Notes under the pieces: generated by a model | Told to the model about the DNA's origin: nothing | The model's input: only the letters and a program-made list of their open reading frames with translations | The model's database searches: none | NCBI GenBank assembly: GCA_039545335.1 | Contig: BCIN01000007.1 | Location: forward strand, 1-64,000 | Length of the DNA stretch: 64,000 bases | Source: Kondoa subrosea | Lineage: Eukaryota | Direction of reading: 5' to 3' | Shown here: in pieces, positions 1 through 61,100 of the stretch | Layout of the letters: each line of letters starts with the position of its first letter | Position numbering within the stretch: the first letter of the stretch is position 1 | Position numbers and translations under genes: made by a program

Positions 1-94
1 AGAAGTGAGCAAAAGTCAAGAGTAGGCTAACATTATCTCTAATGTCGCCTATGTTTACTAATCTATTGCTACAGTCTCATTCCAGTATGCCACA
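1..94. repeat. End of an LTR-like repeat (family B), copy 1, running off the window edge
   Basis: Matches 2561-2654 with 4 mismatches in 94 nt. Both copies end in ...GCCACA and similarity is lost within a few bases. Confidence 0.8.
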
Positions 95-1059
95 TTGCCT
101 TTCATTTCAGTACTAAGACTTTGCGACAAGAAGCTGAAACGTCCCTCTTGCTCTTGAGACTCGGCAATGTTTGCTTGAATGCCAGGTTGCGGATTGTGAG
201 CACCAGAATCTTGCTTAGATTCATTGATTCGAGGTTTTCGATCGTTGGGGTATTTCTTGAAGCATCGAAATCTGCCTTCTCCATCACCATCCAACAAATG
301 ACCGTTTCGTCCACAACCAGTGCATTTCATTCGAGCTTTGACATGACCACCTGAAATACCTCCTCTTGCAGCCAACATTGCAACTTTTTCATCTTTCATG
401 CTTTCCCTGATCTCAAACTCTGAGATCTTGGCTTCGACATCAGCCACGGATAGAGAGGTCAAGGTATTGATCATTATCTCGGAGATGATAGCACACGATG
501 ATGGAAGGTTGAAGATCAAGAGATACTTGTGGATAACTGCTGGAATGGGAATATCGACTTCTTCACAATGTCGTTTGGCATCTTGAACAGCAGTAACGAA
601 ATCTTTGAGAGAATTGTGTTGATCTGGTCTACAATTGAAGAGTGACGAGAGGCGCTGAAAAGGGATTGCTCCTCCTTTGGGGTCAAATTGTTCTTGTAGA
701 ATTGACCATGCTTCTGATGCCAAAGTACAANGCTCAATACGCGGACGAATGGAAGAAGTGACGTTGAGACGTAATTGAGCTAAAGCATCTGAGTTCTTGT
801 AGTTGAAAGATTGAGGATCTTGGGTGTTGGACAAAGTTTCTGAGCCATCCAAGATATTGAATAGGCGTTGATGAACCATGATGTCTCCTATCATAGATTT
901 GAAATTCCTCCAGTTGCCATCTTTGAGCTTTTGATCTTCTGAGAAGATGATCAATTTTGGCTGTTGATAAGTTTGCAAAGTCATCCTTGTTTGAGTCCCT
1001 TGAACGTTTGAGGGTGTAGCAATGATCTTTGATTCTTCCTTTGACTCGTCTCCTGCCAT
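58..1059 (-). mobile_element. Ty1/copia-type retrotransposon gag ORF, truncated at its 3' end by a second repeat
   Basis: 333-aa intronless ORF with copia gag-like segments (KLKDGNWRNFK, ALAQLRLNV, ASEAWSILQEQF) and a CxxC-x4-H knuckle. It is preceded by a copia-type PBS. The last codons (VAYWNETVAID) come from the 1-94 repeat. Confidence 0.85.
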
Positions 1060-1257
1060 TCGACTGACTTGAAGTTGATTGGAATTTAAAGGAGTTGAAT
1101 TGAGATTCTGCTAACTACTGACTCAAGAGAATCTGCAAAAGAGGATCTGACAGTGAAATGAGAGTGTGAAGTGACTGAAGGTGACTGGAGAAGGATAGAA
1201 TAAAGGTTCTTTGCGCAGGTGAAGATTGTTGGAGTGTTCAATCTTCGAGCTCTTCAA

Positions 1258-36958: not shown

Positions 36959-37389
36959 GCTATGGACATTTTTTTACCTGATTGGCTGTGTATGTTTGAA
37001 CGCTCACGCTGTACTCTTTGCATCTCGTTGTATACCAATCATATTGTATGCCGAATTTTAGGCCTTGTCTTAGATTTCGACCACGCGCGCTACTCGACCT
37101 GGAACCAGCATCATTTCGACTTTCCCAAAGGCTCTTCAGTCTGAACCAGCACAGTCCAATTTGTAACTTGTATCTCTTGTACACTAGTCCTTTTCCCGTG
37201 CACCTACAAAAGCCAGCTTATCCTCGTTCGGAACTCTTTCCCTCAGAAGATCAAATCAGCAAGGCACTTTCATTGGCATAAGTCACCTACTTTCCCGCTC
37301 CGACCTGGTCGATCTCTCTTACTTCTCTCTGCATCTGTCTGCTCGTTCCAGCTCCCGTTCTAGACCAAGTATTCAAGTGAAGCTGAAGC

Positions 37390-39118
37390 ATGGCGACTTC
37401 TTCCATAATATCTACTTCTGGCTACAACCTGGATGTGGTCAATATAATAATGGACAACCTACATCTCAGTAACATGGAGTACGACGAGAAACGAGCGGTA
37501 CCATATGCAACATTTGCAAGATTATGCAGAATCAACAAATCTTGGCTCAGTCTAGGTCGAGCCCATCTCTTTCGCAGCATCTACGAAGAACGATTGCAAA
37601 TGGATCGTATCCTCAAATTACTGAAGCTTTTGGATGAGAAACCTGCTTTCGGCAAATATGTCAAGAACTTGCGTTGTGGTCTGATTCGCTCAGAACGGGA
37701 AAGACCAGTACATGTTCCACCTCCTGATTCATTCACTCCTCAACCTGTTCTTCGTCAAGATGTGATGGAAGGCCCTTTCTTACCTGAATCATTCAGTCAC
37801 GCCATGTTCAAGCATTTACTTTCTCATCTAACCGATCTCAAAACCCTATCTATCAACGGTTATGAATATTCTACCCACCCTGGTATTGATATCAGTGCAA
37901 TTTCCTCTTCTCTCATTGAATTTGGCCAATTTAGGACTTTGACCAAGATTGATCTATCATACGTCGGTTTTCCTACACGCAAATACCTTCAATCTACCGA
38001 ACCTGAATCCATAGCTGCAACTCATCGGCAATTCAAAGCTCTTCTTTCGCTCAATAGTATGGTATCACTTGGAATGTATTGGGAAGATAGCCCAAGTTTC
38101 TACTCGGCTTGGGAATGGCAATTGCCTTTATATCCTCGCATTAACGCAAACGCTGTCCCTACTTCAGCTCTCAGACATCTCGTCCTCTGTCACGACCCAA
38201 ATTTACCTGCGCTGATGGATCATATTCCCTCAACCTTGGAAAGTCTCACCATCATACGCACATCTACCGGAGATGCACTCACTTTGGCGCAAATTATGGC
38301 CAAGCTTCATCTACTTCCTAATCTTCGTGATCTTTTGTTACTATCATATTGTTAGTGCATCTCCTTTGATTCGTGCTTGTACTGCGCTCATACATATCTT
38401 TTTAGACTTTATTCGATCGCCAGTCATGGCAACTATATTCGATGCTATCGCAGCAAGCTTCATCGAAAGATTCGCTTGGTCATCCCGAATCAGACCAGAA
38501 TCTTTGGAAACCTTTTTCCGAGGCCCATCAAGTCTGAAAACCCTTCGTCTGAGAGTTTCTCAAGCCGACATTGAGAGAACTTTATCCCATATCATGACCC
38601 AAGATTGTCCTCGGCTCAATGCAATCATACTCGAAGACCAATCGGATTCTATTGGTTCACCAACTTGGGAAGAATACCATAAATATCGATTACCTTATAT
38701 CCAATCTCTTGAAGCTTCTTACGCCGATATGGGGATCAAGGTGGATTGTCGTTATAAAGCAAGAGTAGCTTATCTGGCTCATACAGCTAAGCCATCTGCC
38801 ACTTTGGAAGAAGTACAGCAAGCTGCCTTGAACGCTGAAAGACTTGAAGAAGGTCTGGAAAGGAGAAGAACGGAGTATCAACGGTTGGAAGCGGAAAGAT
38901 ATAGGAATACTATGGCAAGAAGGAATGCTCAAGCTGTGTCAACCGCGCGTGGGATTCGTCCTACAAACACATCGAACTCTATTGCTAGCGGTAGTGGGCC
39001 CTCTGCTGCGACTGCTGGTCCTTTATTCACGATAATCACTGACTCAGTCGATGGTAAGCCCATCTCTTGTCTCTATATTTGTGAATCGTGCTGAAGCTAT
39101 TCAATAGATCTCGCTTGA
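37390..39118 (+). CDS. F-box-like / RNI-like leucine-rich repeat protein
   Basis: FARLCRINKSWLSLGRAHLFRSI F-box-like end and LxxLxL repeats. Two introns. Confidence 0.65.
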
Positions 39119-39419
39119 CTCCTAATGTGGGCAGTAGTGACTGCCACACTTATGATTAATGTTTTCACTATACTTCTTTACCTTGACCGCGTCAGCGTTC
39201 GTCTTACAGAATGATCTTGTTCAGTTCAATTCTCTTTGTACTAGTACAGTAGATGTATTTACGCGTAATAGAAACTCTTTGAGTACCTTTCCATGCTTTC
39301 TCTTTGAACTTTGAAGGCATGCCTTGTCTGGGACCGGAAGCGACTGATCTTCTACCAACGTCGACACGAGTACTCCTCTGCTGCATCGATCCACGTTCGT
39401 TGCTACCGGCTACTGGCTT

Positions 39420-40856
39420 ATGAATGAACTGCCAATAGAGGTGATAAGCCTGATCGTTCACGAAATTGAAGATTGGCAATCTGAAAATGGGCAGATCTTC
39501 AGCCGCAGAAGTCAACTAGCTTCTCTGGCTCTGACATCCTCAACGACACATGGGGTCACTCTTCCTGCTTTGTATCATGAACTAGATGCTGGAGATCTCC
39601 GAAACGAAGCTCTTCTGCGAACTTTCAACAGAAATCCTTTACTAGCAGACCATTGCAAGATCGCTCATTGGCAGCTTGGTGCTTTTGTTCCGGGTGAAGA
39701 TTGGTATGCGTCGACTTATCCTTCTGTTCAGTCTCGCTACGAGGCGGTCAAGCTAGCAGTAGCTCAAGAGATAGTACTTCTGCATTTGGCTCTGTCAATC
39801 TTGGGTCGCTGCGTCAACCTAAAGAGTCTGAGTATCAATGTCAATGTAGAAGGATTGATGGGCTCGTCAATGTTGAAGGATATGATGCCTAAGCAAGAAC
39901 ATTTGGAGACACTTCCCTTCTCTTCAACGCTGAAGAGCTTTCGCCTTTCTGGTGCAATGCGAGGCGCCCCCGTTTATACAGCTGCTACTATCTGCGGATG
40001 GATAACATCATTCAACGAGCTGGAGTGTCTGAAAGTAACTGGTATTCCCTGTCTAAACGATCTGAGCAATTTCGATTGGTGTCCCACCAAACTTCGAAAG
40101 CTCGAGGTACTTCAGAATATGAATTACTCGTTGTCCTCCTCTGATCCATACTACCTCTTTGCAAGTCGAGTCTTGAATAACAATGCAGTTCAACTACAGC
40201 ATCTGGCTGTAGACTGCGATTATAGACTTAGCTCAGCCGATATATCGCCTCCTTCTTGCTCACTGAATAAAGTCAACGCCCAAATGCTGAGAAGGCTGGA
40301 CTTACACGCTGTGGTACCGAGTGCAAGCTACAATCTCACAGCTTGGCAAACACTCTTTGAATGCTGCCACAAAGTTCAAGATCTTCGTATTATCTCCAAA
40401 TATGATCAATATTGCTTGCTTCCGGAAACGTCACTACAATCTGCCCGCTTTTACAATATTCTGCTTCCAATCTTCCTCTCCTCGCCCATCACAACAAATT
40501 TGCAGACGTTGACCATCGATCAATGGGATCTCGATTCTGAACACCATCTCTTCCTTCCCATATTAAGCAATCTTGACACTTTTCCCAATCTCAAAACACT
40601 GCTCATCACCGCTTGCTCGAAAAATCCAGAGCCAATTTTCGATTGGATAACACCCGAAGAAGTGGATGCACGAGTTGAAGTCTTCTCTTCTTTCTTTCGA
40701 AGACAGCTTAAGAACTTACCAGAAGAGATTTCTACAATCGTTCAAGCGCGGTATTGGCATCGATTTGAAGTGAGGCGAATGAGCAATGGAAGCTTACAGC
40801 AAAGAGTGCCGGATCCAAGAGCTATTGATGAGGATTCAGGATGGGTTGATGCGTGA
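39420..40856 (+). CDS. F-box-like / RNI-like LRR protein, intronless
   Basis: 478-aa single ORF starting MNELPIEVISLI..LASLALTS..LPALY, with repeats such as NLKSLSI and NLQTLTI. Confidence 0.75.
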   Translation: MNELPIEVISLIVHEIEDWQSENGQIFSRRSQLASLALTSSTTHGVTLPALYHELDAGDLRNEALLRTFNRNPLLADHCKIAHWQLGAFVPGEDWYASTYPSVQSRYEAVKLAVAQEIVLLHLALSILGRCVNLKSLSINVNVEGLMGSSMLKDMMPKQEHLETLPFSSTLKSFRLSGAMRGAPVYTAATICGWITSFNELECLKVTGIPCLNDLSNFDWCPTKLRKLEVLQNMNYSLSSSDPYYLFASRVLNNNAVQLQHLAVDCDYRLSSADISPPSCSLNKVNAQMLRRLDLHAVVPSASYNLTAWQTLFECCHKVQDLRIISKYDQYCLLPETSLQSARFYNILLPIFLSSPITTNLQTLTIDQWDLDSEHHLFLPILSNLDTFPNLKTLLITACSKNPEPIFDWITPEEVDARVEVFSSFFRRQLKNLPEEISTIVQARYWHRFEVRRMSNGSLQQRVPDPRAIDEDSGWVDA

Positions 40857-41510
40857 AAGAAAGGAGTGAAGGGGGAAGGGTGAGAGTCGATCCAGGAAAG
40901 AGGGAATGAAGGATCCAACAATCAATAGATTCAACACTACTACCTGTTGCTTCATCCCTAGCCTTGGCGCTGCTTCTCCTTGTGCAAACTTCTTCATGTC
41001 ATCGGAGCAAGATAAGGTATGTTTTGGTCTTTTGGGATAATCTGTTGATGCTCATGGTGTCGGAGCAGGGTCTGACTCGTCTTCCGGCCCATGAAATGCG
41101 AAATGATACAGGCATACAGCCATACAATGCATACAGTACTACAACTTGTAGCTTCTTCGGCTTTCAAGCTCGCTGCAACCAGCTCATAACGGTTCGCCTA
41201 CGGACATGAGAGCAAGGAAATATCAAGCAGAAAGTACGGTAACCCTAGCTGTGACTTAGTTTGATTCAGTACGCTCAAACATAAATCCTGTTGGTTGCCT
41301 TACTACGTCGATACCTAAGACACTATACCCGTTGCTCAGCCTGTAGAAGGCTGCCGGAGCTACTTTATTGGTCTAGACGGCGCAAGAGGAGGAGGAGGCC
41401 CAGAGCTGGAATAACGGCCTTCGCATCAGTTGCATTTGGAAACCATTTATCGTAAGCCTCGCTCTACTCGGATCAGCTGCAATCTGACTGCCTGCCTGCT
41501 TGTAACAGCA

Positions 41511-42800
41511 ATGCATTCATTACCGAACGAGCTCGTCGCTGAAGTCTTCTCTCATATCTCTGGCCAAACTTCGGCAACTCTTGCAAAGCTATGCCTCGTT
41601 AACAAGAGCTTCTTCTGTCATGCTCGGCCTCTTCTCTATCAGCGCTTGTATCTCACCTATCCTATGGACAAGCTACTCGATACGCTATGTGCAAGCACAG
41701 CTGGAATTGAGTTGGGCGCAATGGTGAAGGAGGTCGATTGGGACATTAGGCTGCAACTGCGGTCACTATACACTGGGACCACTTGGCTAGATGTGGAGCT
41801 TCAAGCTGCGGCGCGCATAGCGGAATCCAAGGAACGCGCTCAATTGGCCATTTTGACTCTTTGCGCCAATGTGCAAAGGCTGCACATTAGCATCGATGAC
41901 GATAGGACGAGGGATATGTCAAATATGGGAGAGAAAGTACCGACGCCGAAGAGCAAAGACCTACTAGAACTACCGTTCCTTTCCTCACTAACTTTTCTGC
42001 ATCTTTCTTCTCCTGATTTCTCTTGTGCTGATTATCAAGGCTTCGGCCACCTTCTTGTGGCGGCTCCTGCACTGAGAACTTTATCCCTGCATCTCATTCG
42101 CGCTCAAACATTGTTCGATCCGATACAAGATCATCTGCGCAATCCAGCTGCACCTAGTCTTACTCTTTCGACTCTGATTCTGGACTATCAAGTCGACGAA
42201 GATGAAGATGGAGATCTGGAAAGTACCTCTGCGCTGTGGAAAATGATGAGTCTACCCACAGTCAAGACGCTGGAGATTCGAGGAGATCATCAGGTTTTCC
42301 TGGACGTCGCGGTTGACGATAGTCGCATTCTGGAAAACATCACTCATCTTGAAGTCGTTGAAGACATGCGATTCTGGATGGTAGCACCAATAGAGCGTGT
42401 CTTCCCTTCCTTGGTTCGGCTCGGGATATACCTTCGCAGACCTCCTACACTCGCCTTATTGAGTTCTAACTGGAATTTGGCTTCGCTAAAGTATTTGCAT
42501 CTGAGCCTCGGCTTCTTCCATCGTTCAGTACATCACGGCGAAGATACTTTCGACGCTTGTGATACTATTCGTCATTTTATTGATCCTGTCCGACATCCTG
42601 TTTTAGAAAGCCTGGACGTCGTCATAGAAGATAAAGAAGAAGAAGATCATGCGGGTCTCCCTGCGGAAGAAATGCTACAGATTTGGCGATGTTCAGACGC
42701 GAGTTCCTGTCGACTTACAATCACATTCAAGCGGTTAGGAGCAGCTGATATCACTTTTGACAGGCAGGATGATGGGTTCTTCAGGGTGAGGGAATATTGA
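41511..42800 (+). CDS. F-box / RNI-like LRR protein, intronless
   Basis: MHSLPNELVAEVFSHI..TLAKLCLVNKSFFCHARPLLYQ F-box followed by LRR-like repeats. Confidence 0.8.
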   Translation: MHSLPNELVAEVFSHISGQTSATLAKLCLVNKSFFCHARPLLYQRLYLTYPMDKLLDTLCASTAGIELGAMVKEVDWDIRLQLRSLYTGTTWLDVELQAAARIAESKERAQLAILTLCANVQRLHISIDDDRTRDMSNMGEKVPTPKSKDLLELPFLSSLTFLHLSSPDFSCADYQGFGHLLVAAPALRTLSLHLIRAQTLFDPIQDHLRNPAAPSLTLSTLILDYQVDEDEDGDLESTSALWKMMSLPTVKTLEIRGDHQVFLDVAVDDSRILENITHLEVVEDMRFWMVAPIERVFPSLVRLGIYLRRPPTLALLSSNWNLASLKYLHLSLGFFHRSVHHGEDTFDACDTIRHFIDPVRHPVLESLDVVIEDKEEEDHAGLPAEEMLQIWRCSDASSCRLTITFKRLGAADITFDRQDDGFFRVREY

Positions 42801-43023
42801 GGAACATCGATAGGGCTTTGCAATCAGCAAGAGCGTTACAAAGAATGGCGAGGTGGATCATTCGGTTGCCAAGGATTAGCAGCGCGGCTTATTGGATTGG
42901 ATCTGTATCGCTTTCTTTGTATTGCAAGTATCTTAGATCTCCTCGAGGAAACAGTGTGATCATAGCTTTTTCCAAATGTCCAAGGCAAATGGACATGCAA
43001 TATTTCGCTTGTCCACGACCGCG

Positions 43024-43836
43024 ATGAGCTCACTCGTATTCTACGATATTGCTTCAGCAGAACCGCTGCGGACCTTCGCACCTAACCCTTGGAAGACTCG
43101 CTACGCGCTGAACTTTAAGAAGCTGGACTATCGCACTGAATGGACTCGATTAGCTACTATCCCGGAAGTCTGTCAATCTCTAGGCATACCTGCAAATAGA
43201 ACACATCCAAATGGAAGTCCATATCATACTCTACCTGCCCTGCATGATATTGGCAACGGAAAGCAGATTGGCGACTCGTTTGAAATCGCTGTCTACCTGG
43301 ATACAGCTTTCCCTGATTCTCCTTCTCTCTTCTTGCCTGGTACCATTGGTCTGACTGCAGCTTTGAATGCGCAAGTCGATGACCTCTTTACAAGACATGT
43401 TGCTTTGTGCTCAAGAATGCCTATTGCACTGGACGAGATAGAAGAAGTCATGGCTAATTTCACGAAGCGTCTCTCTTTTACCTCTATAGCACCGCCACCT
43501 ACTCAAGCTCCGGAAGCAAAAGAAGCTTTGTTCAAGAACTTCGAGCAATCGTTGGGTCGTTTCAGTAAAGCTTACATGCATGTTGGAGGAACGACCGACC
43601 ATGTCTTACACTCTGCTGGCACATCCGCTGCTCAATTTCAAAGGTCGCCAAGGAGTGAAGTTGGGCCTTGGCTGGATGGTGATAAGCCTCGATATGGTGA
43701 TTTAATCGTTGGGGCTTGGCTTTCCATGTTTAGCGAGAGTTTGTCGGAAGAGGATTGGAAAAGGCTTCGCGGATTGCAAGATGGGTTGTGGGGTAGGATA
43801 TATGATGCGTTGGAGTCGTTGAGGCAAATGCGTTGA
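43024..43836 (+). CDS. Glutathione S-transferase, fungal etherase-like (GSTFuA/LigE-like) type, intronless
   Basis: VFYDIAS...FAPNPWKTRYALNFKKLDYRTEW, YHTLPALHD, IGDSFEIAVYLD and GPWLDGDKPRYGDLIVGAWL. Confidence 0.85.
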   Translation: MSSLVFYDIASAEPLRTFAPNPWKTRYALNFKKLDYRTEWTRLATIPEVCQSLGIPANRTHPNGSPYHTLPALHDIGNGKQIGDSFEIAVYLDTAFPDSPSLFLPGTIGLTAALNAQVDDLFTRHVALCSRMPIALDEIEEVMANFTKRLSFTSIAPPPTQAPEAKEALFKNFEQSLGRFSKAYMHVGGTTDHVLHSAGTSAAQFQRSPRSEVGPWLDGDKPRYGDLIVGAWLSMFSESLSEEDWKRLRGLQDGLWGRIYDALESLRQMR

Positions 43837-44650
43837 GGGGAATACAGTAGTGTGTCATTCCTTCGTTTGGCGCATCAATACTGATCTCTTTTGTTTAGAG
43901 GCATCTGCAATGTTTGCAAAAGGCTATCTTTAATCGAGCTGCGAGACAGGACACGTCTACTGCATTTTTTTATGAACCATCTCTCGAAGCATGCTCTCGT
44001 TATCTTGTTTCAGTCTTTGCGAACTTGTTTCTTTGTACTTCTACGCTTCAGTCGGCTCAGTGCTGGACCTCTTTCCCGTGACTCTGGTTTGTTCAATGTC
44101 TTTCTCCTCCAGTCCTGCTTGTCTACCGAGGCAAGTGGCGACTACTCAGCACGATAGATGCTTTAAGCTTTTCCGACAAGCTCTTATCATGTCATTTTCC
44201 CTCTATGCTTTCAGATCACCGCACAATTTGATAAGCCTGGATTTTGTAAGTGCTCGCTTTACTGAATAACTTTGGCAGAGTGTTTTAATCGCCTCTACGC
44301 GCTTTCTTGAGCGGATCTGACCCGCCTCACGCGCGAACACCACGATCTCCTAACAGAGGTTTATCGCGCACACCAATCATATTCGGGCGCTTCGTTCGCA
44401 TTTTATCCAAGTGCGTTCCATGAAGCTAGTTCGATACGGATAAGAGGATGCAGTCTGCTGTACTTTCAATAACATTATGGTTTTCAGGTAATTGCTTGAA
44501 AGAGGTTCGGATATGCGAATTGGTTGGTCTCAAAGCCCTAATTCGGCCTCCTTCGAATTTTTACATTGGGGACCCAGCAACGATTCTCCCTGATGACTGG
44601 CGACGTGCAAACCAGGGCAAAAAGGGAAAGCAGGCCTGTGGAAGACCAGC

Positions 44651-44655
44651 AAAAA
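44651..44655 (-). terminator. RNA polymerase III oligo-T terminator of the tRNA gene
   Basis: TTTTT on the minus strand 5 nt after the discriminator base. Confidence 0.7.
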
Positions 44656-44660
44656 GAAGA

Positions 44661-44798
44661 AGGACCCAATGTGGTTTGAACACATGACTACAGATGGATG
44701 TAAGAACTTGTCGACGAAATTGATTTGCATCGAACGTACCCTGCCGCTATCGCTGTACATGACTGCAGGCGGCCGCTCTACCACTGAGCTATAAATCC
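44661..44798 (-). tRNA. tRNA-Cys(GCA) gene with two insertions: 14-nt tRNA intron (44749-44762) and 52-nt spliceosomal-type intron (44688-44739)
   Basis: After removing both: GGATTTA TA GCTC AGTGGTA GAGC G GCCGC CTGCAGA GCGGC AGGTC ATGTG TTCAAAC CACAT TGGGTCC T. All four stems pair, the A and B boxes are present, and U73 is the discriminator expected for Cys. Confidence 0.88.
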
Positions 44799-44952
44799 CG
44801 CGGCATATATTGCACAATTGTTGTCAATTCCAATTGAGCAATTTTGATTTGCGATAGAATCGACGATTTCTGTTTCTGTTCCTATAATCTTACATTTGTA
44901 AGATATGCGGGCCATTTTCCTGTCGCAAGTGAAGCCAACCGAGGATCTTCTT

Positions 44953-45531
44953 TCATCTCGTTTCATTAAGAAGCATGAATGGAAAATCTCCTTTTGTCGA
45001 ATCTCGTTTCATGCGTTTCCTCGCTCGTTGAATATCGCCGCCAAGTGGTACTCCTCTCTCTACAAGCCAGTGGGATGAACAATAGCTAACTGTTTGAGCA
45101 TAATTGATGCCTTCTGTGAAATCAATTGTTTGCAAGCATTGTCCCAATTCCTGACCACTCGCTTTGGCTATCATCTCAATACATGTCTTTACAGTCAGTT
45201 CGCGCTTTGCTAAGCACTGACAGAGCTTGCGCATGAATGAATCGAGGAGATCGTAATAGTGAATCGGCAAGCGGCTGCTTTGACTCCGGTCTACTCTCGC
45301 TTGACCTGATTCTCTCGTTCCTTGAGCTCAGATTAATCACTAACCCAACAGTCGTTCGGGTCACATCAATATGTCCGACTCCCTCAATTGATTGCGCTCT
45401 GTTCCAGCCAATATTGGTACGCGAAGAACATCATGTTGGGCTTCAGGCGACGAACACCATGTTGAGAAATACGAACTGATAGATTTGCTTGGATCAATGA
45501 GAGTGTAAGGTGGGAATTTGCGGGTCAACAT
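44953..45531 (-). CDS. Possible short multi-exon hypothetical protein; structure unresolved
   Basis: ATG at 45531 (MLTRKFPPYTLID), overlapping open frames and GT..AG segments. No domain recognised. Confidence 0.3.
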
Positions 45532-45719
45532 CGCGAGACAATCGAATTAGATGGACGAAGAAACGGGAACAGGACGATAAGAAGAAGAGCAAGAATTGAG
45601 CAAACAATGATTTGCGCGTTGTAGAGAGAGTTGTAATGGCTGCATTGTTTTGGACACTTTGTTTCATTTTGATCCTTTAGTACATAATTCCGTTTTCAGG
45701 CTTCTTCACCTTTGCCATC

Positions 45720-46582
45720 TCAAGTTGAGTGCACAACACTAGTAGCGTTGGCCGAAACACCGCAAGACATCATTTGCTGAACTTGTGAAGTAATGTTGCC
45801 TAAAGCAGCTTCATCTGCAGATAAAGATTGTCTCAGTTTTTCGACTCATGACATCCTTGGATGAAAGACAAGAACGTACGGACTGCCTGGAATGCGCCAG
45901 CGGAAGTAGTTGTGTTACTACTGCAGATCACAACATCCCATACAAGTAAAGTTTGACAATCAGTGACCGGATAACTCCTTCATACCAATCATTCATAAGT
46001 ATACTACCATCAGCAACGGAGAGAACACATACTGCAAATGCTCCAAGTAGGAATAAAGAGTCACATTGCCCAATGCAGCAAACGATAATGGAGCATTAAC
46101 AAATTCCCACATTTGCGAATAGGCGCCAGTTGAGTTGGTTGAGTTGAAAGCGATCAATCTTTCGACTAAGACTTCACCGGCTGCTGAGATTGTTCGAGTA
46201 GCACTGTATGAGATCTATGTTAGATGTATATCGGAAACAGGAATTCGAGATAACGAAACTTGATTGCATTCGCTGAACCTGTTGTGTTGACTATCGGTGA
46301 TTGCCAGGAGATATCTTGGACTGTATAGACCTCAGTTAGATAGATGTCGAGGCTCGCGACAGTAGATACTAACAAACACCAGTCAAGCTATACGAAATCA
46401 GCTCGGTACTAAAGATACAAGGATGAAACCTACTTGGAGATCTGTTTAGCATTTGTCCCAATACTGGCTACAGTAGTCAAGTTGGACAAAGACCCTTGCG
46501 AGCAAGTATAGTTCTTCAAAGAAGTAGCAGATTGGGCCAGAACAGCGGCAGGTAAGAGTAAAGCAGCAAAGGAGATCCTCAT
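45720..46582 (-). CDS. Small secreted protein, multi-exon
   Basis: Signal peptide MRISFAALLLPAAVLA, several N-x-S/T sites, and a last exon ending ...MSCGVSANATSVVHST*. Confidence 0.65.
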
Positions 46583-46941
46583 CGTAGTAGTGGTTGACGA
46601 AAGAAGACCGTACGAGTATGGGAAAGACAAGAATAGAATAAGCATTAAGAGAGACATTGAGGGGCAATCAGAAAGTCGAGACTTGAGCGGGAGAACTGCA
46701 AACTAGAAGCGCGCCAATGAGCAAGTATCAATGCGGCGAAGATGTACCTTACCTTGTGCAGGCTAACAAGTGCCGAGTGGAACAGAGCGATAAGGTTTTG
46801 AGACCACAAAGCATAAAAAGAAGTGAAAGCAAAGAATGAAGATCATACAACCAATGGCGTTAATATCCATTACAAACGGTAAGGTGAATACAAGTAAAAA
46901 GGAGAATACGAAAGAACAACCAGCCAGCACAACTCTTCCTT

Positions 46942-47723
46942 CTATTTGGACGAAGAGTATTCTGTAAACACAACAGGTTAGCATAGTCTGTGAGCGAGAG
47001 AAGATCTGATTTACTAGTAACACCCTCTGCAACGAATAGGTTAGCGTGTTATCAAAGTCGTGGAAGAAGATGTTACGAACTTGTTCCTTCAGAAATAGCA
47101 TGCTTGGAAAGTTCACCAGGCAAGATCAAACGAACGGCAGTCTGGATTTCACGAGAGGAGATGGTAGACTTCTTGTTGTATTGAGCGAGTTTGGAAGCTT
47201 CGGTAGCTGCACTCGTTATGAGCGATAGACTATAACACGAAATCATGCAAGCATACCGATACGTTCGAAGATATCGTTGACGAAAGAGTTGAGGATCAAC
47301 ATGGCCTTGTTAGAGATACCAGTGCTGAGAATAGGCATGAGCGAGAAACACAAAAGACGCGTCCAAAGACCTAGCAACGTACTCTGGGTGAACTTGCTTA
47401 AGAACTTTGTAAATGTAGGTAGAGTAAGTTTCCTTTCTAGTCTTGTTTCTCTTCTTCTTCTTCTCGCCATCAGCTGGTGCAGCTTTGGTCTTCTTGGCTG
47501 CAGTAGTCTAGCGCGAAGAAAACAAAACACAATGAGTCTGTGAGGCGAACAATGCATCTGACTCGAGGACTAACCTTTTTGGCTGCAGTGGTCTTGGAGG
47601 CAGGTGCTTTGCCAGCGGTAGAGGCAGGCTTCTTTTCTATAAAGAGCGACCAAAAAACATTGAGCATGAGATTGGAAACATGAAAGCGCGATTGAACATA
47701 CCGGCAGCAGCTTTAGGAGGCAT
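46942..47723 (-). CDS. HTB1: Histone H2B (6 introns)
   Basis: MPPKAAAEKKPAS...[48 protein letters not shown]...[36 protein letters not shown]. Confidence 0.97.
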
Positions 47724-49963: not shown

Positions 49964-51688
49964 TCATGCCAATGAAGCATCATTACGAGTTGCCGTGTAA
50001 GCGTGACCCTTCGTAGCTACAGAGGCCTGAGTGTCATGGACTGGCAGAAGACCGCTTTTGTTCTGTTGCGTCCCATGCCGCGTTGTAATTCGAGGTTCGT
50101 AAGGAAGATGACAATCTTGATGTGTGAGACATGGGTAATACAGGCGATAGCTCTGTTCAAGAGCTCAGTCACAGTTCAGTGCGCTTTTTAAAGGACTCAC
50201 GAAGTAGGCAAGCGAAAACCCGAGTCCAGAACCAGCAAAGACATCGCTCTGTCAAACGGTTCACAGAATGTCCAACAGGAATGGACAGTCTCGCGCACCG
50301 CATGATGTCTGTAATCCATAGTACGAGTGACCGCAATCAAAGCCTATGCTCGTGAGATCAGCTTCCAAAAGACATTTGCGAGGCTGAAGACGTACAGCTA
50401 TAATGAGCGGAGTAACGATAATCCAAGCAGGAGAAGTCTATCAGAAGTTGACGTCTTCGAAACATGCTAAAGAAGCATCTAACTGACGTATCCTCTTCGA
50501 TCAAAAACATCTGTGAATGGAAATCCAATTCAGCTGAAATCGTCAGTTGTGCTCAAAGCTCAACTCACGTAGTTTCCCACCGAGATATAGCGAGAGAAAG
50601 CCCAGACCAGCAAAAGCAGCTGTATAAGAGTGAGCTAACTTTCGTACCTTGAGACAATGGCAAACTGACAACTAGAATGTCCAGAAGGGAAACTTCCTGT
50701 ACGTTCCAAGAACACAACCCGCATCAGAACAGGTCTGATGGCATTCGTCTCAGCGTACGAAACCCATCTTTCAAGTCTTGAGTATTCGTGCATATCCGCC
50801 AAGTCGAAAGTCCATACATAGCAGCATCGACAGCTCCATCAATAGGGATACATCGCCTATCGTGTGTATTAGTGGACCACTTGGGTGATCAAAGAAAGAC
50901 TTACGCAATGAGATCTGGCCGAGGTCGACCAACAGTCAATTTGAGCGCGTCCGTGCAAACCCAAGTGATGGCTTGAGATCTACATTCCAGCATCAGTGAT
51001 TACTCTTGAGGACACAGATTCGACTGACAGGACAAGACCCAGCAGTGCTACATGACTGTTTCAACGAATCAGCTTCGGTCTAGATTTTCGAATAGCAAGA
51101 CTGACAAATGCCAGAAGGAGCGAGAAACGCCCAAGCCTATGATAGCGAAGCATATAACAGGTATCAAACCAGCGCAAACAGCTAGTAGCCACATCGGTAT
51201 TCGTCCAGTTTCAGCATGTCTAAGCGCAACGAATGAGAAAGCAGTTCGGGTGAAGGTGAAAAGAAGTCAACCAACGGGTATTGAAGACTTGTATCCGTCA
51301 AAGAGAACTGTCTTCTGTCTGCACCTTTCATTAGTATTTGCTGTACCACCGATGCAAACTCACAACCATCTTTTTCATCTATCCTGTTCGTTTAATTGGC
51401 TTGAGCAGAGGTCGACATTGTGAAAAGGTACAAACTAACAATGCGAAGACAAGCCATAAGATTCCAGTCAAAATCCTATGCATTTCTCAGCTTCCAATGG
51501 TCTCAAACTCAGCTGGACGGGAACTGACCAATCAGCTGAATAAGAGAATACGAGCTGTTTGAGTTTCTGTCGATCTATAGCAGGTCTATCGGTCGGTGGT
51601 CGAAGATGTGTCCAGACCTGTGTTTCACCAACTTGATTGAGTTGCTGCTTTCGCGCTTAACATGCGATTGGTAACGAACTTTCACCAT
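49964..51688 (-). CDS. PAP2-family lipid phosphate phosphatase (Dpp1-like), tandem copy 1
   Basis: Spliced: YSADW..RRQFSLTDTSL, KLTVGRPRPD (C1), SFPSGHSS (C2), VTRTMDYRHHASDV (C3). Missed by the ORF track because the exons are short. Confidence 0.88.
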
Positions 51689-58149: not shown

Positions 58150-61100
58150 ATGTTGGACAGGATAGGCAAGCCCAAGCTACCTACAACTTACCAAACCTAA
58201 TCTACGATCATAGAGGTCTTCAATTTCAAGTCTTACAAAGGGTTCGACCTTGTTTTATTTATGCACATCTCTCTTATGCGTGACAGTATAGGCATCAGAC
58301 GATTGGACCTTTCCATGCTTTCACTTGCGTTATTGGTCCTAATGGATCAGGCAGTACGTGTTTCTGCTTGAAAGCTATCATCTGGAACTCATGTCATGCG
58401 GATGTAGAATCCAATCTCATGGACGCAATCTCTTTCGTTCTTGGTGTCCGATCAGCTCAATTACGTTCTACTCAACTTAAAGACTTGATCTATCGAGGTG
58501 GCCGACAAACAGCTCAAGAAGGTGAAGAAGATCAGGAGGATGAAGGTGACGCTTTACAACAAGAAGAAGAAGAACAAGCAAAGACTGCTTCTGTCACTGC
58601 AGTTTATACCGAAAATGAAGAAGAATGGCAATTTCAAAGAACGATTACAACTTCTGGTTCTTCAGAATACAAAATCAATGGTCAAACAATGACTTACGCA
58701 AAATACAATGCCGTTCTAGAAGATCACAACATTCTGGTCAAGGCGAAAAACTTCTTGGTCTTCCAAGGAGATGTGGAAGCTGTTGCAGCTCAAGCACCAA
58801 AGGATTTATCTAAATTGATTGATCAGATTTCTGGCTCAAGTGAATTAAAGGATGAGTATGAGAAAGCTAAAGTCGCTCAAGATAGAGCTGTTGAATCTTC
58901 CACGAGCGCTTTCAACAAGAGGAGAGGAATCAATACTGAGATCAAGCAGTTTAAGGAACAGAAAGCTGAAGCTATTAAGTATGATAAGCTAAGAGAAGAG
59001 AGGGTCAGTACCTTCTGATTTAGGTCTGCACCAGTCTCTAACCATAGTAGTAGGACGCTGCGGTCATTCATCATCTCGTTTGGAAGCTCTACCACATCAA
59101 TCAAGGCATTGAAGAGAAAACAACAGCGATTGAGAAGAAGAATGAGTCTATCAAATCTCTTCGATCAGACCAGGTTCGTGAGATTTTACAAAAGCTGTAT
59201 TCAGCTAAGGTTCTATATTCATGGTCAGACTGAACATGAAAACAAAGCTAAAGCTGCACGCAAAGAACAAGCGAAAGCTCAAAAAGAAGTTCTCAAGCAA
59301 GAAAAACTAGTTCGAACTCGAGAGAAAGAGCTAGATGACAAGGTTCACTTGTGTCATCACTTCATCAGGCTATAGCTGATAAGTGAATTCGTTTGTGAAC
59401 AGAGACCTAATTTACTCTCCATCGAAACGAAGATAGCTCATGCAACGAAGAAAGCCAAGAACGCACAAGATCTGAAAGGAACTGTTCAGAAAGATCGGGA
59501 CGCTAGAGCTGCTGAACTAGCAAAGTATTCGAAAGATTTAGATGCGGTCAGAAAGCTAGTACAGCAGCATCAAGGTCGGTTGGATTGGCATGAATTCAGT
59601 GTTATAAGCTGATAATTCTCTATCATTTGATCGACAGATCAAAGGAGGAAAGCCAGTCAAGAAAAAGGCTTGGAATTGAATGAAGATGATTTGAAAGAAT
59701 ATCGTCGACTGTAAGCATTGCATTCGACCGACATCTTATTGTCCTTGACGAATACCGCTATAGGAAAGGCCAAGCTTCGGCTAAAGCAGTAACAGAGAGA
59801 CAAGCTTACGAATCGCAATCCCGAGAAGCAAGAGCTAAGAAAGATGTGCTGGCTGGTTTGACAGACAAGTTGGATCAGGCTCGACATCGATCTTCGAAGC
59901 TAGAATCGGAGCAGACTACTTTGAATACTCGTCAATCTGAGGTGAGCTTGTGTTACATTCATTCGAGGAACTTGTAACAAAAAAGCCTTTATTTCAACAG
60001 ACGTCAAGTAAGACCAAATCCCTCACTGAAGATCTGAATCGAGTGAAGAGAGAGCTCAACGATTCTGTTGCCGAAAGGACACGAATAAAGTAAGTGCTAG
60101 ATCTCTTCGTAAGTCGAGTTGTCCAACGATCTTTCGTAGTCAAACGCAGACTGAACTGAACGAGAAACTGCAAGAATGCTACTCAAAACTCTTCCAAGCT
60201 GGTGCTGATCAACGTGAAAGCGAAAGAGAAGTAAAGCTCAAGGAAACGCTCGCCAACTTACAGAGATCAATGCCAGGTTCGTACTACTCTTATCACATAC
60301 TCGAACAAGAGCTGAATACGAACAGGCAAGGTTCTCGGTCGAGTTGTTGATCTTTGCAAACCAACTCAAAGGAAGTACGACGCTGCTGTTTCTGTCATTC
60401 TTGGGCGACATATCGATTCGATAGTGGTCGACAGTGAATCTACAGCTATTGCTTGCATTCAAGTCAGCATAATTGTCTCTTGCTGTCAAATGCTCACGTG
60501 ATTTTTGCAGGACATGAGAAACGCTCGAACCGGAACAGCTACCTTCTTACCTCTTGACACGATACAAGCTAAGCCGATCAATGACAAATATCGATCCCTT
60601 AGTCGTGGCGCTCGCTTAGCAGTCGATGTCATCCAATTCGATCCTTCAGTAGAAAGAGCTATGCATCATGTTTGCTCGAATGCTTTAGTTTGCGACACTG
60701 TTGAAGTTGCCAAGTACATTTGCTACGAAAAGAACACTGAAGTGAAAGGTCCGTCTATGCTTCTGAGAAAGACTCGTCCCTTGCTGACTCAACATGGCTA
60801 GCTGTTACGCTGGACGGAACAGTCTTTCACAAGGCTGGACTCATTACTGGAGGCAGCACAAATGCCGGCACAGGCAGAAAATGGGAAGAAGCACAGGTCA
60901 CTGGTAAATGACAGCACTCTGCTTTTGGTATCTACTTATTGTTGTTGCAGGTCTAAAACGTCTAGAAGAATCTCTCAGACAGCAGCTTGCTGAACTCACG
61001 AAGTCTCGACCGAGAGGCAACCAAGATGATCGCTTAACAGCTGAGATCAGTCGATTGGAGACTGAGTTGACAGTAGCCAAGGATGATTTGGTACGTGTTT

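Follow-up and report, generated by a model that had tools for sequence, protein, structure and literature searches.

Can a tRNA gene carry an intron of the type that the spliceosome removes from mRNA? The question is raised by a gene for tRNA-Cys(GCA) on the minus strand, at positions 44798-44661, of a 64,000-nucleotide (64-kb) stretch of contig BCIN01000007.1 of Kondoa subrosea, referred to here as the window. An initial annotation had described the gene as interrupted twice: a 14-nt intron occupies the usual tRNA position, and 52 nt with splice signals of the mRNA type split the variable loop. The reading favoured here is that of a working tRNA-Cys gene whose transcript would need the spliceosome and then the tRNA splicing endonuclease (TSEN), and we give it a rough probability of 0.45.

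Identification of a doubly interrupted tRNA-Cys gene

The sole Rfam match in the window at gathering thresholds was to the tRNA family RF00005 at 44798-44661 (39.3 bits, cut-off 29). The alignment covers model positions 1-71 of 71, with 17 bases in the anticodon loop as compared with 3 in the model and a 53-column insertion in the variable region. Together with the ARAGORN calls described below and the coordinates of the parts (Table 1), the alignment bears out the double interruption.

When run in default mode, ARAGORN reported no tRNA gene for the window; given the native sequence in intron mode, it mis-called a 47-nt intron and left an unpaired giant variable region. The initial annotation had expected standard tRNA finders to miss or mis-call the gene, and this holds for ARAGORN. 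A call obtained with only the 14 nt removed was rejected as a false fold, in which intron bases are borrowed as a T arm, with mismatches. After removal of the 52 nt in silico, the call in intron mode was a clean tRNA-Cys(GCA) whose 14-nt intron lies at 37/38.

When both inserts are removed in silico, 21 of 21 cloverleaf pairs are formed, and the product has an AGGTC variable loop, the anticodon GCA and the discriminator base U73. U73 is the main identity element for cysteinyl-tRNA synthetase. The gene also contains the conserved tRNA core bases U8, A14, G18 G19, U33, G53 T54 T55 C56, A58 and C61 and the standard combinations G15:C48 and G26:A44. The predicted junction between exons 2 and 3 after removal of the 52 nt reads ...GCGGCAGG/TCATGTG....

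A reference for the mature form was obtained by scanning metagenomes with a 20-base word from exon 1, which returned a single locus (L001). It is a marine metagenome contig that carries, at 585-656, an intronless tRNA-Cys(GCA) scoring 63.9 bits in Rfam. The contig is that of an unrelated marine eukaryote, and its tRNA is used as a reference and not as a relative. A scan of prokaryote genomes gave 2 loci without a tRNA, which were set aside as chance matches in GC-rich metagenome-assembled genomes, and a viral scan gave 0 loci.

The in-silico mature tRNA and the marine tRNA-Cys are identical at 61 of 72 bases, the acceptor and T stems being where the two differ. An unbroken run of 43 identical bases (linear positions 8-50) crosses both insertion points. 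All 21 cloverleaf pairs are also present in the marine tRNA; at five of them the two sequences disagree, in four cases in both partners, yet pairing is kept throughout. Since the identical run and the pairing span both insertion points, G37/A38 and G46/U47 are the natural junctions. ARAGORN calls the mature form Cys(gca) up to 115% of the default thresholds, as compared with up to 120% for the marine control. Zero disabling changes were found in the 72 exon bases, which have the appearance of a tRNA under structural constraint. Hence the proposal that exact GT-AG removal restores the 5-nt AGGTC loop, the T arm and the acceptor stem is upheld by the ARAGORN call, the 21 of 21 pairs and the match to the marine tRNA.

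The anatomy of the host gene is that of a tRNA gene of RNA polymerase III, with A-box-like and B-box-like blocks, which we so name by their presumed consensus, in exons 1 and 3, respectively, and a T5 run downstream. It is not that of a polymerase II host, which is usual but not universal for U2-type introns; the U6 precedent described below shows that a polymerase III host is no absolute obstacle.

Table 1. Parts of the tRNA-Cys(GCA) locus, in the order of transcription
Feature	Coordinates	Strand	Description	Basis
tRNA-Cys exon 1	44763..44798	minus	36 nt; acceptor 5' strand, D arm, anticodon stem 5' strand, anticodon GCA, loop to G37	Rfam, ARAGORN
A-box-like block TAGCTCAGTGG	44791-44781	minus	within exon 1	
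Canonical tRNA intron	44749..44762	minus	14 nt, at 37/38	ARAGORN after in-silico 52-nt removal
tRNA-Cys exon 2	44740..44748	minus	9 nt, AGCGGCAGG; A38, anticodon stem 3' strand, variable-loop A44 G45 G46	identical in L001
Spliceosomal-type insert	44688..44739	minus	52 nt between G46 and U47 in the variable loop	
Donor GTACGT	44739-44734	minus	start of the 52-nt insert	
Branch-like CTTAC	44704-44700	minus	ends 10 nt before the final AG; its A is 13 nt before the 3' end	
TAG acceptor	44690-44688	minus	end of the 52-nt insert	
tRNA-Cys exon 3	44661..44687	minus	27 nt; U47 C48, T arm, acceptor 3' strand, discriminator U73	
B-box-like block GTTCAAACC	44681-44673	minus	within exon 3	
T5 run, candidate RNA polymerase III terminator (presumed role)	44651..44655	minus	begins 6 nt past the discriminator base	direct reading

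Intron signals of the 52-nt insert

The initial annotation had placed the insert at 44739-44688 and had ascribed to it a GTACGT donor, a CTTAC element 10 nt before the AG and a TAG acceptor, and all of these sequence statements check out. Furthermore, the tail before the TAG is pyrimidine-rich, and the terminal AG is the first AG after CTTAC, with none between them and none in exon 3. The donor fits the genome donor consensus GTNNGT; GTACGT itself occurs 21 times in the window (both strands).

The likelihood of finding such signals by chance was estimated from 52-mers of shuffled window sequence, scored for a GTRNGT start, a YAG end and CTNAY in the branch zone. At fixed boundaries, 14 of 1,278,760 shuffled 52-mers qualified (1.1e-5). 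Because two boundary placements give the same product, the chance becomes ~2e-5. In the real window, 4 of 127,444 52-mers carry the signals, the insert itself and real introns of 52 nt, if there are any, being among those counted. Neither insert contains TTTT, as had been pointed out for the 52-nt insert in terms of a polymerase III stop. The absence is confirmed for the 52 nt but is weak evidence, because 86% of the 52-mers in the window also lack TTTT. We consider it very probable that the insert is intron-type sequence and not a chance insertion.

For comparison, other introns of this genome were collected with a strict screen for GTNNGT...YAG joining at least 60 open codons on each side. 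This yielded 16 candidates, possibly including false positives, which are 41-67 nt long (median 55 nt), in agreement with the claim that the ~50-nt length of the insert is typical here. A branch-like CTRAY was found in five candidates and CTYAY in four, and neither motif in seven. The classical CTRAY is thus present in fewer than one third of the 16, and branch sites of this fungus seem to be unusually degenerate. An earlier ORF-joining screen with 162 overlapping candidates was too noisy and was replaced by that of 16. A pattern search for GTRNGT, CTRAY and YAG gave 38 candidates in the window, mostly of 42-60 nt.

Two introns of protein-coding genes are well supported and serve for closer comparison. 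The H2B intron (47382-47325, minus, 58 nt) starts with GTACGT and has CTCAT before CAG, and its removal restores a continuous H2B frame; the adjoining ORF gave a Histone Pfam match of E 9.8e-6 and 26.3 bits, just below the 26.4 cut-off. The H2B gene, with exons at about 47000-47600, has at least two short introns. The TMEM16 intron (20373-20313, minus) separates an Anoctamin_N exon from an Anoctamin exon that is matched from its first residue. Its sole branch-like motif is CTTAC, 10 nt before the AG, arranged as in the tRNA insert.

The initial annotation had assigned the GTACGT donor also to introns in SMC1, H2B and ArfGAP. This stands for H2B and is plausible for SMC, GTACGT candidates being present at 58354 and 61091 inside the SMC_N gene region. 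For ArfGAP it could not be confirmed, the ORFs tried at 49964-50888 giving no Pfam match. As judged by these candidates, the length, the donor, the acceptor and the pyrimidine-rich tail of the insert, and apparently its branch type too, are within the range of introns of this genome.

An artefact of assembly, named at the outset as an outcome that would overturn the spliceosomal reading, was checked for in Logan contigs of two DNA runs. Both contig sets carry 44400-45100 with 0 differences, at word depths of 170 and 68, and hence carry the insert unchanged. Both runs come from one sample, possibly the source of the assembly, and represent a re-assembly and not independent material. The insert is not an artefact of the deposited assembly. 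Searches of the same contigs for paralogous tRNA-Cys copies at 80% likeness returned the locus itself only.

No second copy of the insert was found in the window (blastn-short, self match only); having no second copy there, it is not marked as a recently active repeat. Nor is there support at the locus for the target-site duplication of a transposon-type insertion, since the two boundaries share only AG.

Endonuclease-type anatomy of the two inserts

Introns of tRNA genes that are cut by the tRNA splicing endonuclease may be recognised by a bulge-helix-bulge (BHB) motif. The hBHBh' geometry, i.e. 3-nt bulges around a 4-bp helix H with flanking helices h and h', was laid on every boundary pair within 4 nt of the insert boundaries.

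For the 14-nt insert, the h helix, provided by the anticodon stem, is complete (four of four pairs), and a pair is formed between position 32 and intron position -3. With this pairing and its placement at 37/38 in ARAGORN, the insert behaves like an ordinary eukaryotic tRNA intron, as the initial annotation had it.

For the 52-nt insert, no full BHB motif was found within 4 nt of the boundaries. The boundary choice (0,0) gave 1/4 pairs in H, 2/4 in h and 1/4 in h', and the choice (-1,-1) gave 3/4 in H, 3/4 non-contiguous in h and 0/4 in h'. Thus, the 52-nt insert is without the bulge-helix-bulge anatomy of endonuclease-type tRNA introns.

These data bear on the explanation that the 52 nt are a non-canonical tRNA intron cut by the tRNA splicing endonuclease, or removed by another endonuclease-ligase route, the GT...AG termini being coincidental. 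Non-canonical tRNA introns confirmed by RT-PCR are known in some eukaryotes, and archaeal introns occur at 45/46, according to the passages of PMC4090602 that were available. A relaxed 4-bp helix GCAG/CUGU can also be drawn for the present insert, provided that the 5' cut is moved by one base. However, it leaves a 6-nt loop and poor flanks, and neither boundary choice that restores AGGTC gives hBHBh', the flanking helices failing in both. This explanation further requires the full set of spliceosomal signals to have arisen by chance (~1e-5). Moreover, fungal TSEN is considered to use the mature body as its ruler instead of reading a BHB (in part from PMC4090602). An endonuclease-type origin of the 52 nt is therefore judged to be very improbable.

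Proposed maturation of the precursor

RNA polymerase III would transcribe the 138-nt body from the A-box-like and B-box-like blocks and would stop at the T5 run. The two blocks are ~66 nt further apart than usual. Eukaryotic tRNA introns span 6-133 nt (in the part of PMC4090602 that was available), and since ~66 nt falls within this span the wider spacing appears to be acceptable.

In the precursor of ~150 nt, the acceptor, D, anticodon and T arms would be kept, and the insert would fold separately in the variable region. In the minimum free energy (MFE) fold calculated for the 138-nt precursor (-32.6 kcal/mol), all four tRNA arms are kept and the insert forms a separate two-hairpin domain. 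The spliceosome would then cut out the 52 nt at AGG/GTACGT...TAG/TC, by which G46 and U47 would be joined and the AGGTC loop and the tertiary core restored. TSEN and the tRNA ligase would subsequently take out the 14-nt intron; this step is placed after that of the spliceosome because the folded body is considered to be what TSEN measures from. As to the origin of the insert, an existing intron may have been transposed: it would have been reverse-spliced into a small RNA that is abundant, and the product would have been reverse-transcribed and recombined into the genome.

That a nuclear tRNA would be matured in this way by two unrelated splicing machines in series, the spliceosome acting on the 52 nt of the variable loop and TSEN with the ligase on the 14 nt, is put forward as a tentative proposal, at somewhat below even odds.

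The calculated fold may also be read differently, namely as that of a tRNA from which the insert is never removed and which works with a giant variable region of 57 nt. A one-base boundary shift would put the insert between 45 and 46, which by the numbering known to us is the site of the class II long arm, and the fold with four arms and a separate domain would suit such a molecule. On the other hand, the spliceosomal signals would be left without an explanation, we know of no tRNA with an arm of this kind, and G46 would be separated from U47/C48 in the tertiary core. A permanent giant arm is hardly credible.

Splicing of a polymerase III transcript would not be needed if the tRNA were part of a longer minus-strand polymerase II transcript that is spliced first, RNase P and RNase Z then releasing the tRNA. 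A multi-exon gene for a secreted-looking protein does in fact precede the tRNA gene on the minus strand, its exons extending from about 46580 to 45700 or beyond. However, several hundred bases lie between the tRNA gene and the nearest clear coding exon, and the ORF at 44953-45327 is without a Pfam match. The tRNA gene moreover has its own A-box-like and B-box-like blocks and its own T5 run. A host transcript of this kind is considered to be improbable.

A working gene or a disabled copy

Of greater weight is the alternative that intron-type sequence landed in one of several tRNA-Cys genes and that the copy so disabled is too young to have decayed. The sequence could have arrived by reverse splicing and retro-insertion, by capture of intron cDNA at a break, or with a mobile introner-like element. 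The polymerase III transcript would then remain unspliced and a 124-nt product would be discarded.

Any copy-in mechanism would give exact boundaries and intact signals, and the evidence from boundaries, chance estimate and pairing fits such a copy equally well. A freshly copied intron brings perfect signals and leaves intact exons whether or not the gene works, and hence intactness does not discriminate between the two. Genes for tRNA are usually present in many copies, so that a disabled one is tolerated. The acceptor stem of the present gene is weak, with three consecutive G-U pairs at 4:69, 5:68 and 6:67 in the standard numbering (4:68, 5:67 and 6:66 in linear count), the first of which is shared with the marine tRNA-Cys.

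Further points weigh against a working, spliced gene without being specific to a disabled copy. The CTTAC of the insert is not of the CTRAY type, the commonest branch type here. In mammalian cells, splicing was reportedly not seen with polymerase III transcripts. Export from the nucleus may also be fast for pre-tRNAs whose ends have been processed, leaving the spliceosome little opportunity. Excision, the lariat and the mature tRNA are predictions from the DNA sequence. A disabled copy in particular is favoured by the statement in PMC4090602 that, where a eukaryotic tRNA gene has an insertion at an odd position, it mostly belongs to a set of many synonymous copies and is generally regarded as a pseudogene.

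What speaks for a working gene is, in the first place, the state of the locus. The 72 exon bases are undamaged and all 21 pairs are intact; so are the donor, the branch-like site and the acceptor, with no competing AG, and the A-box-like and B-box-like blocks and the terminator. Undamaged exon bases and a complete set of splice signals are what a working gene would be expected to show, and a disabled copy must invoke its youth to account for them. Against a disabled copy it also counts that, in the window, which covers only part of the genome, no second copy of the insert marks it as a recently active repeat. There is, finally, a fungal precedent for the splicing of a polymerase III transcript (PMC5855946, in the passages available). 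On balance, a freshly disabled copy is possible and almost as likely as a working gene.

Relation to known introns in non-coding RNA genes

No description of a spliceosomal intron in a tRNA gene was found in the literature searched, which comprised titles, abstract starts and selected passages of PMC12530127, PMC4090602, PMC5855946, PMC11146597, PMC5647799 and PMC13578239, most subscription journals and supplements being outside the search; an older report could exist. The result is in line with the initial annotation, which knew of no established case in a tRNA.

The precedent mentioned above is that of U6. The U6 RNA of Schizosaccharomyces pombe is transcribed by polymerase III and undergoes spliceosomal splicing. 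As many as four mRNA-type introns are present in fungal U6 genes, and U1, U2, U5 and rRNA genes also carry them, the classical mRNA-type introns in U6, U2, U1 and U5 genes being those of Rhodotorula hasegawae and S. pombe (available passages of PMC5855946). The statement that introns of this type occur in fungal snRNAs, including the polymerase III transcript U6, and in rRNA thus agrees with that source as far as it was available.

The tRNA insert is similar to the introns of fungal U6 and other snRNA genes, as they appear in those passages, in being a short intron-type sequence with canonical 5' and 3' sites and a branch-like site in a small structured non-coding RNA gene with an internal polymerase III promoter. 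The host is likewise a fungus; it shares its phylum, and probably also its subphylum, with R. hasegawae, which belongs to the Pucciniomycotina. The S. pombe U6 intron, at ~50 nt, has nearly the same size as the insert. An origin by reverse splicing is likely in both cases; the route outlined above for the insert is that proposed for the S. pombe U6 intron (PMC5855946, same passages) and for the mRNA-type introns of fungal U6, U2, U5 and U1 genes in general.

In other respects the two cases differ. In the parts of PMC5855946 available, U6 genes are the only polymerase III genes with known spliceosomal introns, which is explained by the closeness of U6 to the catalytic centre. A tRNA is outside the spliceosome, and such proximity cannot explain an insertion into its gene; according to the same source, the introns in U1 and rRNA genes show that proximity to the active site is no requirement. 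Unlike U6, the same 138-nt precursor also has a TSEN-type intron, so that two unrelated splicing systems would act on one RNA. Furthermore, splicing of U6 has been demonstrated, whereas that of the tRNA-Cys insert is a prediction. If it is spliced, the new case is that of a spliceosomal-type intron in a tRNA gene, such introns being already known in other small non-coding RNA genes.

Genes for tRNA that are interrupted repeatedly, including at a site other than 37/38, are known from Cyanidioschyzon merolae, from the nucleomorphs of cryptophytes and chlorarachniophytes, and from archaea. The archaeal non-canonical introns include those at 45/46, and the multiply interrupted nucleomorph genes include tRNA-Cys(GCA). 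In the passages of PMC4090602 on which these statements draw, the non-canonical introns are short (3-24 nt in Guillardia) or bear a BHB, and are cut by the endonuclease. The 52-nt insert, in contrast, has no BHB, carries GTACGT, CTTAC and TAG, and has the length of an mRNA intron. In the available part of a review (PMC12530127), the eukaryotic intron classes are treated as separate, each with its own substrates.

A different source of introns has to be considered as well. Introners and introner-like elements of fungi and algae drop ready-made introns into unrelated sites, and a tRNA gene would be no harder a target for them than a coding gene. Families of introners comprise many near-identical copies; within the 64-kb window, the insert is single. 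A length of 52 nt is that of a regular intron and is not typical of introner-like elements.

If the gene is spliced as proposed, the spliceosome can act on an uncapped, fast-folding tRNA precursor. Intron transposition would then reach RNAs outside the spliceosome, tRNA genes being colonised as fungal snRNA genes were. Counts of tRNA genes may be too low, because the default mode of ARAGORN missed this gene. The locus would also provide a compact natural substrate for studying the order and the compartment of two splicing pathways. If the gene is dead, it would still capture a rarely seen event, the copying of an intron into a target other than an mRNA gene, and would bear on the origin of new introns.

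Genome setting and neighbouring genes

Proteins encoded in the window include fungal housekeeping types with SMC_N, importin-beta repeats, Nup85, Pif1, Zds_C and TMEM16. Among the 120 matches listed for the importin-beta exon, all named hits are from Basidiomycota. The best of those listed is Mixia osmundae with 63% identity, followed by Sporobolomyces, Rhodotorula, other Microbotryomycetes and Ustilaginomycotina. The host is probably a basidiomycete of a deep Pucciniomycotina lineage without a close sequenced relative. The Logan contig sets comprise ~18.8 million letters, which suggests a genome of ~19 Mb.

Next to the tRNA gene, a snoR117-like match on the plus strand (44802-44883) scored 17.8 bits against a cut-off of 42 (E 0.64) and was dismissed as chance. 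The multi-exon gene upstream of the tRNA (about 45700-46700, minus) has a signal-peptide-like start (MRISFAALLLPAAVLAQS...) and many N-x-S/T sites; two of its ORFs tried gave no Pfam match.

On the plus strand, four large consecutive ORFs of 322, 292, 502 and 461 aa at 37387-42800 resemble a tandem lineage-specific family, and two of them have N-terminal motifs that are F-box-like by eye (LPNELVAEVF and LPIEVISLIVHEI). An ORF at 58-1110 (minus) encodes a gag domain of copia-type long terminal repeat (LTR) retrotransposons (Retrotran_gag_2, E 2e-12) and adjoins ten single N at 731-2120. A GST-like gene at 42937-43836 (plus; GST_N_2 / GST_C_7) has its best named relatives in Dothideomycetes (Ascomycota), with ~55% identity. 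As compared with the affinity of the importin-beta exon, this may reflect horizontal transfer or a patchy distribution of the family.

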